Source: a virus
Lineage: Duplodnaviria; Heunggongvirae; Uroviricota; Caudoviricetes
Reading direction: 5' to 3' (one strand)
Length of the DNA stretch: 4,379 bases
IMG/VR virus record: IMGVR_UViG_648276671_000010
Location: 1-4,379 of that record
Shown here: positions 1 through 4,379 of the stretch, one piece after another
How the letters are laid out: each line of letters opens with the position of its first letter
Numbering within the stretch: position 1 is the first letter of the stretch
The notes under the pieces: model-generated
The model's database searches: none
What the model was told of the DNA's origin: nothing
What the model saw: only the letters and a program-made list of their open reading frames with translations
Position numbers and translations under genes: made by a program

Positions 1-221
1 CATTTATCGGGTGTCCATAGCGAAGTTCATAGCCAGCCGGTAGCTGGACTTCCCTTGCCTCCAGTTCTGCAATGCGCTTGTCTTTGGCTTCCAGTTCATC
101 AAGAACCGTTTTTTATGGCTGGTGAATGTGTCGCATAACTCGCAGCCGGACCGGCAAGCATTATCCTGAGCTGCGTTTTCGCTTTTTCCGTGTTCATTTG
201 GTTCATTACCTTATTTAGTGG

Positions 222-629
222 CTATATTCCCCAATAGAACGTTAGTATACGCTGCATAACTTCGCTTTCCCGGCACTCGCTACAGATTATGTTCTGACGC
301 CTGTCATAACGACGTATTTCTCCGTCTGGTAATGACCAGATAAGGTCCGGATCAACCACAGATGTTTTTTTCTTCAGCTTTGCCCTTGAGAGTTTTTTGC
401 GGGCATTTTGCCAGTCCTTACGAGCCTGTTCTGACGGGAATAACCCGTAGCCAGAATTGTATACATCGCCACTGGCAACCAGCTCTCTGGCGAGAACACT
501 CATCAGATATCTTGTTGCCCCGGTTTTAGCTTCCAGTTGTCGTAACGTCTCGCGCCCACTCTGGCGTACAAGCTCAACAACCTGCCCTTTAATTTTTTCC
601 CACTCTTCTTGTGTAAAAACTTTTGCCAC
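222..629 (-). CDS. hypothetical prophage protein (135 aa), function unknown; last visible gene of the minus-strand early operon
   Basis: ORF from the six-frame track. GTG start at 629 with GGAGG Shine-Dalgarno (complement of 634-638) 4 nt upstream. Same orientation as, and 40 nt downstream of, the replication-protein gene. No family recognised by eye. Confidence 0.55.
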   Translation of the reverse strand: MAKVFTQEEWEKIKGQVVELVRQSGRETLRQLEAKTGATRYLMSVLARELVASGDVYNSGYGLFPSEQARKDWQNARKKLSRAKLKKKTSVVDPDLIWSLPDGEIRRYDRRQNIICSECRESEVMQRILTFYWGI

Positions 630-669
630 AAGTCCTCCTGAAAATTACCTCATAAGCTGAAATAAACAC

Positions 670-1740
670 TTACCCCCTGAAGCCCGGCGGAATTTCGGTA
701 TCCGGTTCAGAAATATGATTCACACAACGCTGGTTGTTCGTGCCGCTTACCGGGAGCAACCAGGGGTTTTCAAAATTCCGGTCCGGTCCAAAAAACGTCG
801 TAGCTCGCTGAACAAATTCCGTTCCCGTTTTCCCTGTAGCCGCCAGGTATCTTGCGTAACGCCTCACGCCATCCAGCATGGCCTCTGGTGGCACCCCCTC
901 GCGTAATCTGGCCTTCCAGGCACTGAAAGCGGATTTCTTCGGGTTTGCCCCGGCACGCAACGGGTACTCCCGCCAGACCTGTTCGAACACATCCGGATAA
1001 TCCACTCGTCCCACAGACTGCCCGGTGCTTTCCGGGACTACCCGATCGGCTTCCCGCTGAATGGCGGAATCGGCTTCAGGCTGTTGCAGTTGGTGTGATT
1101 GCTCCGGCCTTGCGGTCATCACCTGCTGCACAGCGCCCGAATCGGCTTTCAGCGCATACGCTGAATCGGCTTCCGGTGTCGTGCCTGCTGTCTGACCAGG
1201 ATTGACGGTCTGAACATCCCCTGCCTGGTTCGTGGCGTTTTTTACGCCATGGACCATAGTGTTTTGATCTTCTTGATCTGTATCTGTATCTGTATCTTTA
1301 TCTGTCGTGACTCGTCGTGACATGTGCGTGACATTTCGTGACGCGCCGTGACAATCGCCATTTTGTTCCCGCTTTCTTTCCCTCTCTCGCTGCGCCCTCT
1401 TGCGCTCTGCAGGAGATTTTGCGGTTTGCGAAATATTGCCGTTGTCCTCTTTAAGCACCTGGCGTTTTTCCCATCCAGTGATTAAATCACCATCAAGTAC
1501 CCGCCCCTGCATCGTCTGCAAAATTGAATCAATTACCTCTTCTGTCACGTCGAGCGCACTTGCCAAATCTTCTGTCGTGACATCAATGTGACCTCGCGTG
1601 ACATTTCGTGACGCGCTCACCAGGAGGTGGATATACACTGCCATCACTGTTGCAATTGGCTGCCCTGACACCCTGGCAATTGTTCGCCACTTAGGGTCAT
1701 TTGGGATGTCATGCCATAATCTGAGCCAGGCGTTAGCCAT
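670..1740 (-). CDS. phage replication initiator, functional analog of lambda O (YdaU-like): N-terminal region, acidic low-complexity linker (ERKRAQRERERKREQ, KDTDTDTD), C-terminal domain
   Basis: Track ORF is 670..1746 with a GTG at 1746. The in-frame ATG at 1740 has a GAGG SD (complement of 1746-1749) at 5-nt spacing that overlaps the GTG, so the start is placed at 1740 (protein MANAWLRLWHD...). Sits in the O position after the cro-like and cII-position genes and contains phased iterons in its coding sequence. YdaU-like assignment is from memory. Confidence 0.7.
   Translation of the reverse strand: MANAWLRLWHDIPNDPKWRTIARVSGQPIATVMAVYIHLLVSASRNVTRGHIDVTTEDLASALDVTEEVIDSILQTMQGRVLDGDLITGWEKRQVLKEDNGNISQTAKSPAERKRAQRERERKREQNGDCHGASRNVTHMSRRVTTDKDTDTDTDQEDQNTMVHGVKNATNQAGDVQTVNPGQTAGTTPEADSAYALKADSGAVQQVMTARPEQSHQLQQPEADSAIQREADRVVPESTGQSVGRVDYPDVFEQVWREYPLRAGANPKKSAFSAWKARLREGVPPEAMLDGVRRYARYLAATGKTGTEFVQRATTFFGPDRNFENPWLLPVSGTNNQRCVNHISEPDTEIPPGFRG
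1281..1304. repeat. hexanucleotide tandem repeat (TATCTG/TATCTT) x4 inside the replication gene; encodes the DKDTDTDTD linker on the minus strand
   Basis: Direct reading: tatctg tatctg tatctt tatctg at 1281-1304, AT-rich, next to two GATC sites (1266-1269, 1275-1278) and immediately upstream of iteron cluster 1. Confidence 0.8.
1306..1352. repeat. iteron cluster 1: five direct copies of CGTGAC phased at 10-11 bp (putative ori iterons)
   Basis: CGTGAC at 1306, 1316, 1327, 1337 and 1347 on the plus strand; spacing matches the DNA helical repeat. Lies in the linker-coding part of the O-like gene, as lambda ori does within O. Confidence 0.65.
1575..1612. repeat. iteron cluster 2: four direct copies of (C/T)GTGAC phased at 10-11 bp
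   Basis: CGTGAC at 1576, TGTGAC at 1587, CGTGAC at 1597 and 1607. The 21-bp string gcgtgacatttcgtgacgcgc occurs exactly at 1326-1346 and 1596-1616; tctgtcgtgac occurs at 1301-1311 and 1571-1581. Confidence 0.6.
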
Positions 1741-1811
1741 ACTCACCTCTTCTGATACCGAATCTTTTTACTCACGAGTTGCCGGAAGCGATTCGATATG
1801 GCTATTATCAC

Positions 1812-2237
1812 TCAATGCACTGCCACAGCATTTCCTGCCGGGCCACCACGGTTCATCTGATTGAAACCGGCGATTGCCACTGCGACAAAATCATCAGCGT
1901 CTCTCACCAGTCGTTCCCGCGTCTCCACCAGCTCCCGAAAATAGGCTGAACTGTGGCTGCGCATTCGGGCCACCAGCAGAGGTGGCATTGCTTTTTCGAT
2001 CGCTGGTAACAACGCCTGAATTTTTTTAACCGCATCAGGGGTGTCTTTCTCCACCCAGCGGAAAATTTTCTGAGTATTGCGAGCCAGGGCTTCCGGATGG
2101 CTGTCGTCATACAGTTCCGGGAACGTCATTCCCAGCTCGAAATACGCTTTGGTAATTTTCGCAGCCGGTACTTTTTCGCCGTCCGGATGTGCCCAGGCAT
2201 TCATCGCCATGCGGATGTGCTCATGCTTGATTTTCAT
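1812..2237 (-). CDS. ydaT: YdaT-like protein, occupying the cII position of the switch
   Basis: 141-aa track ORF beginning MKIKHEHI. ATG at 2235-2237 overlaps the upstream cro-like stop in an ATGA arrangement (translational coupling); GGGAG SD 7 nt upstream. Family assignment from memory of Rac YdaT; needs blastp. Confidence 0.75.
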   Translation of the reverse strand: MKIKHEHIRMAMNAWAHPDGEKVPAAKITKAYFELGMTFPELYDDSHPEALARNTQKIFRWVEKDTPDAVKKIQALLPAIEKAMPPLLVARMRSHSSAYFRELVETRERLVRDADDFVAVAIAGFNQMNRGGPAGNAVAVH

Positions 2238-2497
2238 GAATCAACTCCCGCAGCTGGTTGTGTGTTAGCCTGATAGTCAACAGGTATGCCATCGGTTGGG
2301 TTGGGGTAAGTATTGCTATCAATCTCGTGCGGGGTCACTACCCACCCTGTTGCTTCACACCAGCGTAAAATTTTTTCCCCCGTAAGTTTCGCCCGTCCAG
2401 TAATGACATGGCTTACCATCCCTTGGGTTGCCCCAACAATTTCAGCAAACTTTTTCTGGGTTATACGGGAATGATGCAAATATTCTCCAAGCTTCAT
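2234..2497 (-). CDS. Cro-like HTH DNA-binding regulator (YdaS-like)
   Basis: Track ORF 2234..2509 (MRRTMKLGEYL...). The internal ATG at 2497 has a GAGG SD (complement of 2503-2506) at 5-nt spacing, whereas the 2509 ATG has none, so the start is placed at 2497 (87 aa). HTH-like motif ITQKKFAEIVGATQGMVSHVITG. First gene transcribed divergently from the repressor. Confidence 0.75.
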   Translation of the reverse strand: MKLGEYLHHSRITQKKFAEIVGATQGMVSHVITGRAKLTGEKILRWCEATGWVVTPHEIDSNTYPNPTDGIPVDYQANTQPAAGVDS

Positions 2498-2527
2498 TGT
2501 TCGCCTCATGTTATGTGATCACGAACA

Positions 2528-2569
2528 TTAATAGCATTGTTATTTTTGAAAGTAAATAGCATCACTATT
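2528..2569 (-). promoter_or_regulatory. PR-like early promoter with two operator sites: site A 2530-2544, site B 2555-2569; -35 TTTACT (complement of 2551-2556), extended -10 TGcTATTAA (complement of 2528-2536)
   Basis: Read on the minus strand: AATAGTGATGCTATT (site B) and AATAACAATGCTATT (site A), centres 25 bp apart, are 7-1-7 inverted repeats sharing a perfect TGCTATT promoter-proximal half. A 17-bp spacer separates the -35 and -10. Predicted start near 2520, about 24 nt before the cro-like ATG. Confidence 0.6.
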
Positions 2570-2604
2570 TCAAAGAGATTAGTAATCTTATTAGAATTGA
2601 AGGT
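2568..2604 (+). promoter_or_regulatory. PRM-like repressor maintenance promoter: -10 TAGAAT 2592-2597, weak -35 near 2569-2574; transcript predicted to start at or next to the ATG (leaderless)
   Basis: TAGAAT ends 7 nt before the ATG at 2605, and no SD sits at usable spacing (AAGG is 1 nt from the ATG). The weak -35 abuts operator site B, whose centre is about -43 from the predicted start. Geometry parallels lambda PRM/OR2. Confidence 0.4.
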
Positions 2605-3104
2605 ATGAAAAGAAAACCCCTGTCAGAGATCGACCTACAAGCAGCCCAGAGACTGAAAGAAATCTGGACGACAAAAAAACTCAACTTGGGTTAACCCAAG
2701 AGCGTGCGGCAGAAATTCTGGGGTTTTCGACACAAGGGGCAGTAAGTCATTACCTAAATGGTCAGACACCTTTAAATCTAGAGGCTGTTATCAAGTTCGC
2801 TGGGTTGCTGCAAGTTCCGCCCGAGTCAATTAGACCAGATATGGCAGACTTGTTACGAATTGTAAGGATGTACCCCCAAGAACCGCAGCAGGATAATGTT
2901 GTCGCTTTACCCGCAGAGATGGAACAATCGGAAAACGAACTTCCGTTTAATATAGAACCTATAGAGCGAGATTTGATCCAGACGTTCAGGGCTTTCCCAA
3001 AAGAAGACAAAGAGAAAATGCTTAAGGAAATGAAGGAGAAAAAAGAATCAATTGAAGAAACCGTTGCGCGGTGGCTAGAGGCGCAAAAAGGTCGTCGCGC
3101 CTAA
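2605..3104 (+). pseudogene. cI-position prophage repressor (XRE/cI-type HTH, PaaR-like, no S24 peptidase domain), interrupted by a 1-nt frameshift in this sequence
   Basis: ATG at 2605 reads MKRKPLSEIDLQAAQRLKEIWTTKKLNLG then TAA at 2692-2694. The HTH continues in the -1 frame (LTQERAAEILGFSTQGAVSHYLNGQTPLNLEAVIKFAGLLQVPPESI...) to the TAA at 3102-3104. Restoring one base in GGGTTAACC gives a 166-aa protein whose N-terminus parallels lambda cI (KKxxLGLSQE). The first canonical start in the downstream frame is TTG 2805, after the HTH. Confidence 0.6.
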
Positions 3105-3121
3105 TCTGAGGAGGTTAGAAC

Positions 3122-3313
3122 ATGAGTACAGCCCTTTCCCCGATAATTTCAGAATTTGAAACAATCGAACAAGAAAACAGCTATAACGAATGGTTACGCA
3201 CCAAAGTGGCAGCAAGCCTCGCAGACCCCTGTCCTGCAATTCCACATGACGAAGTAATGGCTGAAATGGAAAACCTTATTGCTCAAATAGCTTCGACGAA
3301 CAGGAGTGAGTAA
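3122..3313 (+). CDS. type II antitoxin (63 aa), PaaA-like partner of the ParE toxin
   Basis: GAGGAGG SD at 3108-3114, 7 nt before the ATG at 3122. Its stop overlaps the toxin start (TAATG at 3311-3315). Small acidic protein; the motif SEFETIEQENSYNEWLR matches my memory of PaaA2. Starts 17 nt after the repressor stop, so it is co-operonic with the repressor. Confidence 0.75.
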   Translation: MSTALSPIISEFETIEQENSYNEWLRTKVAASLADPCPAIPHDEVMAEMENLIAQIASTNRSE

Positions 3314-3603
3314 TGCTACCCATTTTATGGCTACCTTCTGCGCGTGATGATTTGCGTGAGATTGTGACCTATATTGCCAAAGAAAGCCCTCCCGCTGCAC
3401 GTAGACTAAAAATGCGCATTGAAACATCAGTTTTGTCACTAACTGAGCACCCTTACCTGTATCCACCAAGCGAAAGAGTTCCAGGCCTTCGTGAGATAGT
3501 GACCCATCCTAACTACATAATACTTTACCGAGTAACAGCATCTAACATCGAGATCGTAAATGTAGTTCACACACGAAGGCAGTATCCAAACAAAAGCTGT
3601 TAA
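3313..3603 (+). CDS. parE: type II toxin, ParE/RelE superfamily (ParE-like, 96 aa)
   Basis: AGGAG SD at 3302-3306. Typical ParE/RelE length and motifs (N-terminal LPILWLPSARDDLREIVTYIA; C-terminal GLREIV...YRV...IEIVNVVHTRR). Translationally coupled to the upstream antitoxin. Confidence 0.85.
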   Translation: MLPILWLPSARDDLREIVTYIAKESPPAARRLKMRIETSVLSLTEHPYLYPPSERVPGLREIVTHPNYIILYRVTASNIEIVNVVHTRRQYPNKSC

Positions 3604-3617
3604 TCATTCCTGCCAAC

Positions 3618-3639
3618 AACCACCTTTGGGTGGTTTTTT
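3618..3639 (+). terminator. intrinsic (rho-independent) terminator ending the repressor-antitoxin-toxin operon
   Basis: Stem AACCACC (3618-3624) pairs with GGTGGTT (3629-3635), loop TTTG, followed by a T-run to 3639. Lies 15 nt after the toxin stop. The reverse complement has no trailing T-run, so it is unidirectional. Confidence 0.6.
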
Positions 3640-3658
3640 CTTGCTCTTCAAAAAAAAC

Positions 3659-3700
3659 AATAGCATTGCTATTTACACAACAAAATATCAATGCTATTGT
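3659..3700 (+). promoter_or_regulatory. PL-like early promoter with two operator sites: site C 3659-3673 (perfect AATAGCA-T-TGCTATT), site D 3684-3698 (AATATCA-A-TGCTATT); -35 TTTACA 3672-3677, extended -10 TGcTATTGT 3692-3700
   Basis: Same 15-bp inverted-repeat motif, same 25-bp centre spacing and same overlap with the -35/-10 as at PR. 17-bp spacer. An A-run (3650-3657) lies upstream. Predicted start near 3707. Confidence 0.6.
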
Positions 3701-3876
3701 TCATTCATCAACCCACCCCGCCCCACAGAATGCAGGGCAATACTTCGAGTTACCAGGTAGTGGTCAGGGGTTAAGTAGCCAGCCCGAGGCGTAAGAACAT
3801 GACGGCAGGGTTCAACTTTAACTATGCAGCAGGTTTTTGTTCCGCTACCCCGGCGTTAAGGGGAAATGAGGTCAGC

Positions 3877-4029
3877 ATGGATACTATCGATCTTGGCAAC
3901 AACGAGTCTCTGGTATACGACGTGTTTCCCAACCAGGACGGCACGTTCACGGCGATGACGTATACCAAAAGCAAAACATTTAAAACCGAAGCTGGCGCGC
4001 GTCGCTGGTTAGCCAGAAACACTGACTGA
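3877..4029 (+). CDS. small early-operon protein (50 aa), YdaF-like; alternative in-frame start at 3799 would give 76 aa
   Basis: Track ORF 3799..4029. The internal ATG at 3877 has a GAGG SD (3867-3870) at 6-nt spacing; the ATG at 3799 has GAGG (3786-3789) at 9-nt spacing. The shorter product matches the roughly 50-aa length I remember for the YdaF family. Start uncertain. Confidence 0.5.
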   Translation: MDTIDLGNNESLVYDVFPNQDGTFTAMTYTKSKTFKTEAGARRWLARNTD

Positions 4030-4040
4030 TGAGGTTGACG

Positions 4041-4379
4041 ATGGAATTTAAAGATTTACCAAAAGAAATCCAGTCCATTGCTGCAACGACACTTAGTGAT
4101 AGCCTGGTGGAAATTAACCCGGCATACATCAAAAAGGAAACCATCGATAATTTGGTTCGTAATGTGCGCGATGCGTTTACCGGATTGTACTCCGTTTCGG
4201 TAACAAACAACCAGAATACTGAAGAAGCTGCAAAGCGGAATGCCTCGGTGACGGGTTTTCATGTCGAGGAAAAGTATTCAAAAAAAGAATTCTGGAAAAC
4301 TGCAAAAAAAATTGCAGAGCGAGAACTGTCATCTCCTGCGGCAATCGGTTCTTTCTATGAGGAAAGTTATTCAGATGAC
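4041..4379 (+). CDS. hypothetical early-operon protein, 3' partial (at least 113 aa; runs off the window end)
   Basis: ATG at 4041 with GAGG SD (4031-4034) at 6-nt spacing; open frame with no stop through 4379 (MEFKDLPKEIQSIAATTLSDSLVEINPAYIKKETIDNLVRNVRDAFTGLYSVSV...). Not in the track because it has no stop inside the window. Function unknown. Confidence 0.6.
   Translation, partial: MEFKDLPKEIQSIAATTLSDSLVEINPAYIKKETIDNLVRNVRDAFTGLYSVSVTNNQNTEEAAKRNASVTGFHVEEKYSKKEFWKTAKKIAERELSSPAAIGSFYEESYSDD

Follow-up and report, generated by a model that had tools for sequence, protein, structure and literature searches.

In prophage CP-933P of Escherichia coli O157:H7, the repressor PaaR2 and the Cro-like protein YdaS both footprint the intergenic region that separates their genes, and they repress the rightward promoter (PR), the repressor-maintenance promoter (PRM), and the leftward promoter (PL) (PMC8630535). 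The footprints obtained in that work (78 bp continuous in one case, 27 + 32 bp in the other) were not assigned to exact sequences by the authors, the paaR2 mRNA proved by experiment to be leaderless, and the locus, for which a PaaR2 octamer is cited, is bistable (PMC8630535). For the Rac prophage of E. coli K-12, three 15-bp operators of the repressor RacR have been described, and racR is also leaderless by experiment (PMC9638921). Here we analyze a stretch of 4,379 nucleotides (positions 1 to 4,379 of IMG/VR virus record IMGVR_UViG_648276671_000010, Caudoviricetes), referred to below as the window, which is a lambdoid prophage immunity region containing a family of 15-bp inverted repeats. We estimate a probability of roughly 85% that these sites are the operators of a lambdoid immunity switch worked by a repressor and a Cro-like protein, with three predicted sites in the right operator (OR) and two in the left operator (OL).

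The genes for a helix-turn-helix (HTH) repressor and a YdaS-family HTH protein diverge from 107 bp lying between an ATG at 2497 (minus strand) and an ATG at 2605 (plus strand), and both products give HTH_3 matches. On the plus strand, the repressor gene is followed by genes for a PaaA2-family antitoxin and a ParE toxin, a terminator, the OL pair, and a DUF1391/ydfA-type gene, while the order on the minus strand is the YdaS-family gene, YdaT, a replisome-organizer-like gene, and a DUF977 gene. One pair of sites is located between the divergent repressor and cro-like genes, and a second pair precedes the leftward early operon. The predicted sites, with their scores on the position weight matrix (PWM) described below, are the following.

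OR1, 2530-2544: AATAGCATTGTTATT; PWM score 21.9, rank 2; offset -75 from the repressor ATG, matched in related loci
OR2, 2555-2569: AATAGCATCACTATT; PWM score 17.2, rank 4; offset -50 from the repressor ATG, matched in related loci
OR3 (weak), 2578-2592: ATTAGTAATCTTATT; within the PRM-like promoter spacer, 13 bp ahead of the repressor ATG; PWM score 9.3, rank 5 of 4365
OL2, 3659-3673: AATAGCATTGCTATT, a perfect palindrome; PWM score 23.6, rank 1
OL1, 3684-3698: AATATCAATGCTATT; PWM score 19.2, rank 3

Searching the whole window with the pattern AATAGCANTGCTATT and allowing up to three mismatches returns exactly four matches to AATAGCA-N-TGCTATT, at OR1, OR2, OL2, and OL1 (1, 2, 0, and 1 mismatches, respectively), and these are the same four 15-mers, at the same coordinates, that an earlier note on this DNA had picked out from the sequence alone. 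Dinucleotide-preserving shuffles give 0.18 expected matches, and four or more were seen in none of 200 shuffles. Direct reading of the sites in promoter orientation bears out the claim of that note that the promoter-proximal half, TGCTATT, is perfect in all four, and the window search together with repeat analysis agrees with its equal spacing of the two pairs, since both the start-to-start and the centre spacing are 25 bp in the OR pair and in the OL pair. Moreover, positions 2530-2569 and 3659-3698 form an inverted repeat over 40 nt with 78% complementarity. For comparison, related loci were retrieved by means of the repressor protein only, and not by the DNA motif, giving 12 loci from species-representative genomes and 80 from IMG/VR, of which 88 form the comparison set for OL; they represent Citrobacter (C. 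braakii), Rouxiella, Yersinia (Y. frederiksenii), Providencia, Proteus, and E. coli/Shigella-type contigs. When a PWM is built from the sites of the other genera only, with all E. coli sites left out, the four sites take ranks 1-4 among the 4365 15-mers of the window.

The earlier note had counted two sites in OR and two in OL. The next-ranking 15-mer of the PWM, however, lies 23 bp past OR2, between the TTCAAA and TAGAAT hexamers of the PRM-like promoter, and only 0.13 sites with scores as good as its 9.3 are expected per shuffled window. Aligning the loci on the repressor ATG places three sites at about -75, -50, and -27, nearly every related lineage having the last of them between -26 and -29 (for example, ATTAGCAATACTATT in Citrobacter and ATTAGCAATCTTATT in the Shigella-type group), and the 15-mer at the OR3 position ranks fifth to seventh of the several thousand per locus in most lineages. 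Because of this conserved third position in the relatives and the fifth-ranking score at 2578-2592, we regard the putative OR as tripartite (25- and 23-bp spacing) and OL as bipartite, which gives a layout of three OR sites plus two OL sites. The two-site OL of the note is thereby retained and its two-site OR is not; similarly, its description of lambda logic with a different site number and sequence holds for the sequence, whereas OR has three sites, as in lambda, and only OL differs in number. The search for a third OL site in the window found a lone half-site-like TGCTCTT (3642-3648), 25 bp upstream and lacking a partner half, and none was seen in the OL flanks of the relatives.

The promoters and the terminator to which these sites must be related are listed here.

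PR-like promoter of the cro-like/ydaT/replication operon, 2556 to 2528, minus strand: TTTACT (2556 to 2551), 17-nt spacer, TGc, TATTAA (2533 to 2528); read from the sequence
PRM-like promoter of the repressor and toxin-antitoxin (TA) operon, 2569-2597, plus strand: TTCAAA-17-TAGAAT; from the promoter scan
PL-like promoter of the DUF1391 (ydfA)...dicB-side operon, 3672-3700, plus strand: TTTACA (3672-3677)-17-TGc-TATTGT (3695-3700); from the promoter scan
Intrinsic terminator, 3618-3644 (hairpin 3618-3635), plus strand: AACCACCTTTGGGTGGTT plus T-run; ends the repressor-TA operon just before OL2

The PR-like promoter was not listed by the promoter scan because its -10 hexamer ends in A rather than T. 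Starts are expected at about 2520-2522 on the minus strand for PR and at about 3707 on the plus strand for PL. The PR-proximal half of OR1 gives the TGn and the first four bases of the PR -10, just as the right half of OL1 forms the TGc and TATT of the extended -10 of PL, so that the extended -10 elements that the note had assigned to the downstream site of each pair are recovered, by promoter scan for PL and by direct reading for PR. Its other promoter claim, that the upstream site of each pair lies over a TTTAC(T/A) -35, also stands, OR2 overlapping the -35 of PR and OL2 that of PL by 2 nt in each case; in addition, OR2 abuts the -35 of PRM. The same geometry recurs in every genus, with the right end of site 2 running into the -35 (TTGACA, TTGATT, or TTGACG elsewhere, TTTACA or TTTACT here) and the right half of site 1 supplying the -10 (TAATAT, or TATTGT/TATTAA). 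A hairpin and T-run precede OL2 in most related lineages, and the order terminator, OL2/-35, OL1/-10 is kept in 86 of the 88 related loci. As for PRM, the TAGAAT hexamer ends 7 nt before the repressor ATG, and a -10-like hexamer ends 6-9 nt before it in all genera compared; a leaderless repressor mRNA is predicted on this basis, its start falling on the A of that ATG (2605) or immediately beside it.

In the related loci, whose repressors carry the recognition helix TQGAVS(H/Q)YLN, the motif occurs only in the two control regions and at fixed offsets from the repressor ATG. The second pair is situated behind the terminator with its sites 23-27 bp apart, and 86 of the 88 loci have the OL pair. 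One might nevertheless read the repeats as PR and PL promoters that arose by duplication and share sigma-70 elements, instead of as operators, given that the invariant TGCTATT coincides with the TGn/-10 and with the edges of the -35, and that the two regions share 78% similarity across 40 nt. We consider this highly improbable. Dyad symmetry is not a promoter property, and the distal halves, which lie in the spacer or upstream of the -35, are conserved across genera all the same, the promoter-distal half-sites keeping AATA.C across lineages even though they have no sigma-70 role. Moreover, OR3 belongs to neither PR nor PL, and the motif changes together with the recognition helix of the repressor in heteroimmune relatives: in the loci of a Stx2 phage, Rac-SA53, and an EDL933 PaaR (L014, L015, and L016), the recognition helices are altered and different repeats occupy the same positions. 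In a set of 20 distinct E. coli-type OR regions, variation is seen in 2 of 30 columns at the outer positions of the sites, in 8 of 15 at their central positions, and in 17 of 45 outside the sites.

Two observations concern variation within the sites and their spacers. In these 20 distinct OR regions (L017-L060), no part of the control region varies more than the five central bases of OR2 (2560-2564), which read, for example, CATCG, CACTG, CATCA, CATTA, CGCCA, or TGATG; the AATAG and CTATT arms on either side never change. In near-identical contigs (L024-L032), OL1 and OL2 lie 24 to 28 bp apart, depending on how long an A-run between them is; this variation would shift the spacing of the PL -35 and -10, and it may represent real tuning or homopolymer error.

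The position of the TA genes, between the two site clusters and co-transcribed with the repressor, brings to mind classical type II control in which the repeats would be autoregulatory operators of a PaaA-ParE complex. We have rejected this explanation, which we find scarcely credible, for two reasons. The only domain matched in the antitoxin is the PaaA2 stability determinant, PF21217, and there is no DNA-binding domain (see also PMC8630535). In addition, the same sites flank the repressor in the Rouxiella, Yersinia, Providencia, and Proteus loci, from which the PaaA-ParE module is absent and in which the terminator and OL come directly after the repressor. PaaA-ParE is therefore cargo, and the sites are not TA operators.

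The two proteins that would use the predicted operators are encoded as follows.

Repressor gene, 2605-3104, plus strand: 166 aa if intact, with an N-terminal lambda-CI-type HTH, a disordered linker, and a C-terminal PaaR-type helical hairpin
Cro-like YdaS-family HTH protein, 2234-2497, minus strand: 87 aa

The frame-repaired repressor of 166 aa shares 99% identity with E. coli proteins and 98% with an E. albertii protein. Its residues 2-82 align with residues 3-82 of lambda CI, including the basic N-terminal arm (phmmer E 1.6e-9 for 1lmb, 34-37% identity). An AlphaFold model (mean predicted local distance difference test score 77) is disordered in the linker (93-112) and forms two helices beyond it (119-165), and Foldseek comparison of this model with lambda cI-NTD structures gives root-mean-square deviations of 1.2-1.6 A and template modelling scores of 0.86-0.93 on the target. 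In its N-terminal domain the protein is genuinely homologous to lambda CI. Over the last ~64 residues it shares 58% identity with an EDL933 PaaR paralogue, and a Pfam search of the repressor for a Peptidase_S24 domain gave no match; when judged as a member of the lambda CI family, the protein thus has the N-terminal HTH and not the RecA-cleavable S24 domain. On the basis of the CI and PaaR alignments, the model, and the missing S24 domain, the repressor is, as predicted from its sequence, a lambda-CI-type DNA reader joined to a PaaR-type, SOS-insensitive tail. The C-terminus also gave a weak Pfam match to Tad5 (E 0.006), which at 17 bits fell short of the cutoff of 27 and was disregarded. The phage GenBank collection contains relatives of the N-terminal domain only and no full-length relative. 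A separate group of relatives of 240-255 aa (P0013-P0023; L002 4001-4723) combines the CI-like N-terminal domain with a second HTH and the common C-terminal helices, and this second HTH resembles the DNA-binding domain found in the EDL933 PaaR paralogue, which indicates domain shuffling among these repressors.

The HTH regions of the repressor and the Cro-like protein are 38% identical and their recognition helices read TQGAVSH and TQGMVSH, respectively. At one helix position, H or Q agrees between the two proteins, both having Q in the Providencia/Proteus clade. It is conceivable that only one of the regulators recognizes the sites and that the other uses different intergenic sequences, as could be suggested by the PaaR2 and YdaS footprints of CP-933P, which overlap and are not identical (PMC8630535). 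We judge this unlikely, however, in that the two recognition helices differ very little and co-vary, and the 107 bp between the genes show no other conspicuous repeated motif.

The locus has what is expected of lambdoid operators, namely divergent genes, dyads of one consensus over the early promoters, a weaker site at PRM, and a second cluster at PL. Gene context, promoter overlap, conservation across genera, and the CP-933P and Rac precedents all uphold the core of the earlier note, a lambda-like OR/OL switch, apart from its site count. We infer that protein occupies the predicted operators, and the switch might then work as follows. A repressor dimer would read each 15-bp dyad AATAGCA-N-TGCTATT, filling OR1/OR2 and OL1/OL2 first. 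Repressor on sites 1 and 2 would cover the -10 and -35 of PR and PL, and this occupancy would shut off both the cro-like/YdaT/replication operon and the leftward early operon. Repressor bound at OR2 would be placed to stimulate PRM, and such activation is plausible because the centre of OR2 lies at about -43 from the predicted PRM start and because the repressor keeps acidic residues aligned with Glu34 and Asp38 of lambda CI, which are positive-control positions in that protein. The variability in the centre of OR2 fits filling of this site through cooperativity with OR1. OR3, being inside PRM, would mediate negative autoregulation at high repressor levels, and the Cro-like YdaS would probably enter at this site and, given its near-identical recognition helix, probably competes for the sites of the repressor. 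As the CII analogue, YdaT would bind a site of its own at 2227-2244. Looping between OL and OR, whose sites are 1129 bp apart, may be possible by analogy with CI and the PaaR2 octamer.

Several points weigh against the operator switch proposed above. OR3 is weak, having four mismatches to the strict consensus, and the commonest E. coli variant has an even weaker OR3 (ATTAATAATCTTATT, PWM score 7.6). The -10 of PR, TATTAA, is without the usual final T. The co-variation of H and Q in the two recognition helices is only suggestive because it probably represents a single evolutionary event, and cooperativity, looping, and PRM activation are drawn only from analogy with lambda and PaaR2. Finally, the repressor frame is broken in the window at an A7 run (2673-2679), with a stop at 2692-2694, so that the protein is truncated after 29 residues and has no in-frame start ahead of the HTH. 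As a result of this broken frame, the switch may not work in this genome in the way set out above. The window reads GACGAC-A7-CTC, as compared with GACGACG-A7 in an O-antigen-diverse E. coli relative and with A8 in contig L098, which is 99.9% identical and has an intact frame.

Perhaps, then, the operators are real and the circuit is a relic, in which the repressor is reduced to 29 residues and only YdaS, if anything, uses the sites, leaving the switch locked in a 'YdaS-on' state. The one-base deficit relative to intact alleles, with the resulting early stop and the lack of an in-frame start before the HTH, would fit such a history, as would the presence of the same A7 allele in an assembly from a second, independent read set (L097, SRR024214). 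L097 and the window, however, differ only at two other homopolymer runs, as is typical of homopolymer sequencing error, and the almost identical L098 has the intact A8 frame. Moreover, the rest of the gene is without further lesions and its product remains 99% identical to intact proteins over 166 aa. We therefore view a relic circuit as possible and rather doubtful. An intact repressor may be absent here unless the A7 run is a homopolymer sequencing error, and such an artefact is equally possible. The zero-frame reading ACA AAA AAA C also contains an in-phase A_AAA_AAA slippery heptamer, followed 5 nt on by a 6-bp hairpin, CTTGGGTTAACCCAAG (2685-2700), and a -1 shift at this heptamer would restore exactly the intact repressor. 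It is a long shot that the A-run at 2673-2680 is a slippage-prone, phase-variable switch in which A7 is heritably off and low-level repressor is made by -1 ribosomal frameshifting; if true, a phase-variable, leaky repressor allele would, through the operators, determine both the immunity of the prophage and the expression of the TA genes. Exact-match scans for the lineage or allele of the window gave nothing in IMG/VR or the JGI metagenomes, and this lineage was found only via the exact ParE protein.

The remaining features of the window are given next.

YdaT, CII analogue, 1812-2237, minus strand
Predicted YdaT site, 2227-2244: TTGATTTTCATGAATCAA, perfect, TTGATT-N6-AATCAA, at the ydaS stop/ydaT start junction
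PaaA2-family antitoxin, 3122-3313, plus strand
ParE toxin, 3313-3603, plus strand

YdaT shows five differences from PDB 3c4r in a 141-residue alignment and matches the YdaT of CP-933P, 8bt1, with an E value of 3.6e-81. The predicted site at 2227-2244 is a match of OM, the footprinted high-affinity YdaT site of CP-933P (PMC9986795), and its presence would imply a YdaT-controlled antisense route to the repressor operon resembling that from the lambda promoter for repressor establishment (PRE). The antitoxin is close to PaaA2 over residues 3-47 and has a different C-terminal third (MAEMENLIAQIASTNRSE), one that the EDL933 paralogue shares and that goes together with a ParE differing to match. Within the replisome-organizer (O-like) gene, direct-repeat clusters on CGTGAC / CATTTCGTGACGCGC at 1314-1352 and 1574-1612, and also at 1332-1347 / 1602-1617, look like origin iterons. 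The leader of ~170 nt after PL (3700-3876, 'catcaacccaccccgccccacagaa...') is nearly identical in the heteroimmune EDL933 PaaR locus, which places a mosaic boundary of the immunity cassette directly after the PL -10. Folding of 3706-3880 in this leader was no better than that of shuffled sequences (z +1.45), and we propose no structured leader; a scan of the complete window against Rfam at E <= 1, the PL leader included, gave no RNA family. Of 5426 complete E. coli genomes, 72 carry this immunity type, O104:H4 and O145:H28 strains among them.

The analysis provides an operator map of five predicted sites, three promoters, and one consensus, and it predicts the same DNA-binding specificity for prophages from at least five further enterobacterial genera. 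The repressor represents a natural hybrid of a lambda CI DNA-binding domain and a predicted SOS-insensitive PaaR-type C-terminus, and the locus is a convenient comparator both for the bistable switch of CP-933P and for the wiring of TA cargo into prophage immunity. Our understanding of how such switches work is unchanged, and the feature is ordinary for a lambdoid prophage. A full-text search for the operator strings found no paper containing them in the library that was searched.

The likeness to lambda is extensive. In both systems the repressor and cro genes diverge and three OR dyads lie ~2.3 helical turns apart (spacings of 24 and 23 bp in lambda, 25 and 23 bp here), with sites 1 and 2 over PR, site 3 over PRM, and a second cluster at PL past the repressor operon. 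Cargo is carried between the repressor gene and OL (rexAB in lambda, paaA-parE here), the repressor mRNA is leaderless in lambda and predicted to be so here, and the N-terminal domains of the repressors are homologous, basic arm included. The dyads, however, are 17 bp in lambda and 15 bp, with another sequence, in the window, and OL has three sites there and two here. In addition, a short PaaR-type C-terminal hairpin replaces the S24/RecA-cleavage domain, and the analogues of Cro and CII are a YdaS-family HTH protein and YdaT, respectively. The Stx2 phage 933W, in work by Tyler, Mills and Friedman from 2004, reportedly has the same count of three OR and two OL sites; it differs in having an S24-type, SOS-inducible repressor and another operator sequence.

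Rac likewise has three 15-bp inverted repeats between its divergent repressor and ydaS genes, with O1 over the ydaS promoter and half-sites that share a WTAG core. The RacR sites, however, are WTAGGC-n3-GCCTAW, a half-site and spacing not found in the window, their TAG/CTA cores are 2 bp further apart, O3 overlaps the racR ATG, and RacR is described as having two HTH domains. The closest studied system is CP-933P, which has the same order of paaR-paaA-parE genes divergent from ydaS-ydaT-replication genes. It also has a strongly similar YdaT with a TTGATT-N6-AATCAA site at the same place (PMC9986795), a PaaA2-family antitoxin and ParE toxin, operators in the intergenic region and at PL downstream of parE, and a repressor without a RecA-cleavable domain. 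Although this gene order is found in the window, neither the GTTTAGTAA operator nor a PaaR2-type DNA-binding domain is present: CP-933P has 18-bp palindromes built on that half-site, whereas the 15-bp AATAGCA-N-TGCTATT sites are unrelated, and three OL operators are described there as against two here. PaaR2 reportedly does not resemble CI in sequence, in contrast to the clear CI homology of the N-terminal domain of the present repressor, of which only the C-terminal ~64 residues are PaaR-like. The kind of arrangement seen at this locus is well known, and the sequence of its sites is new.

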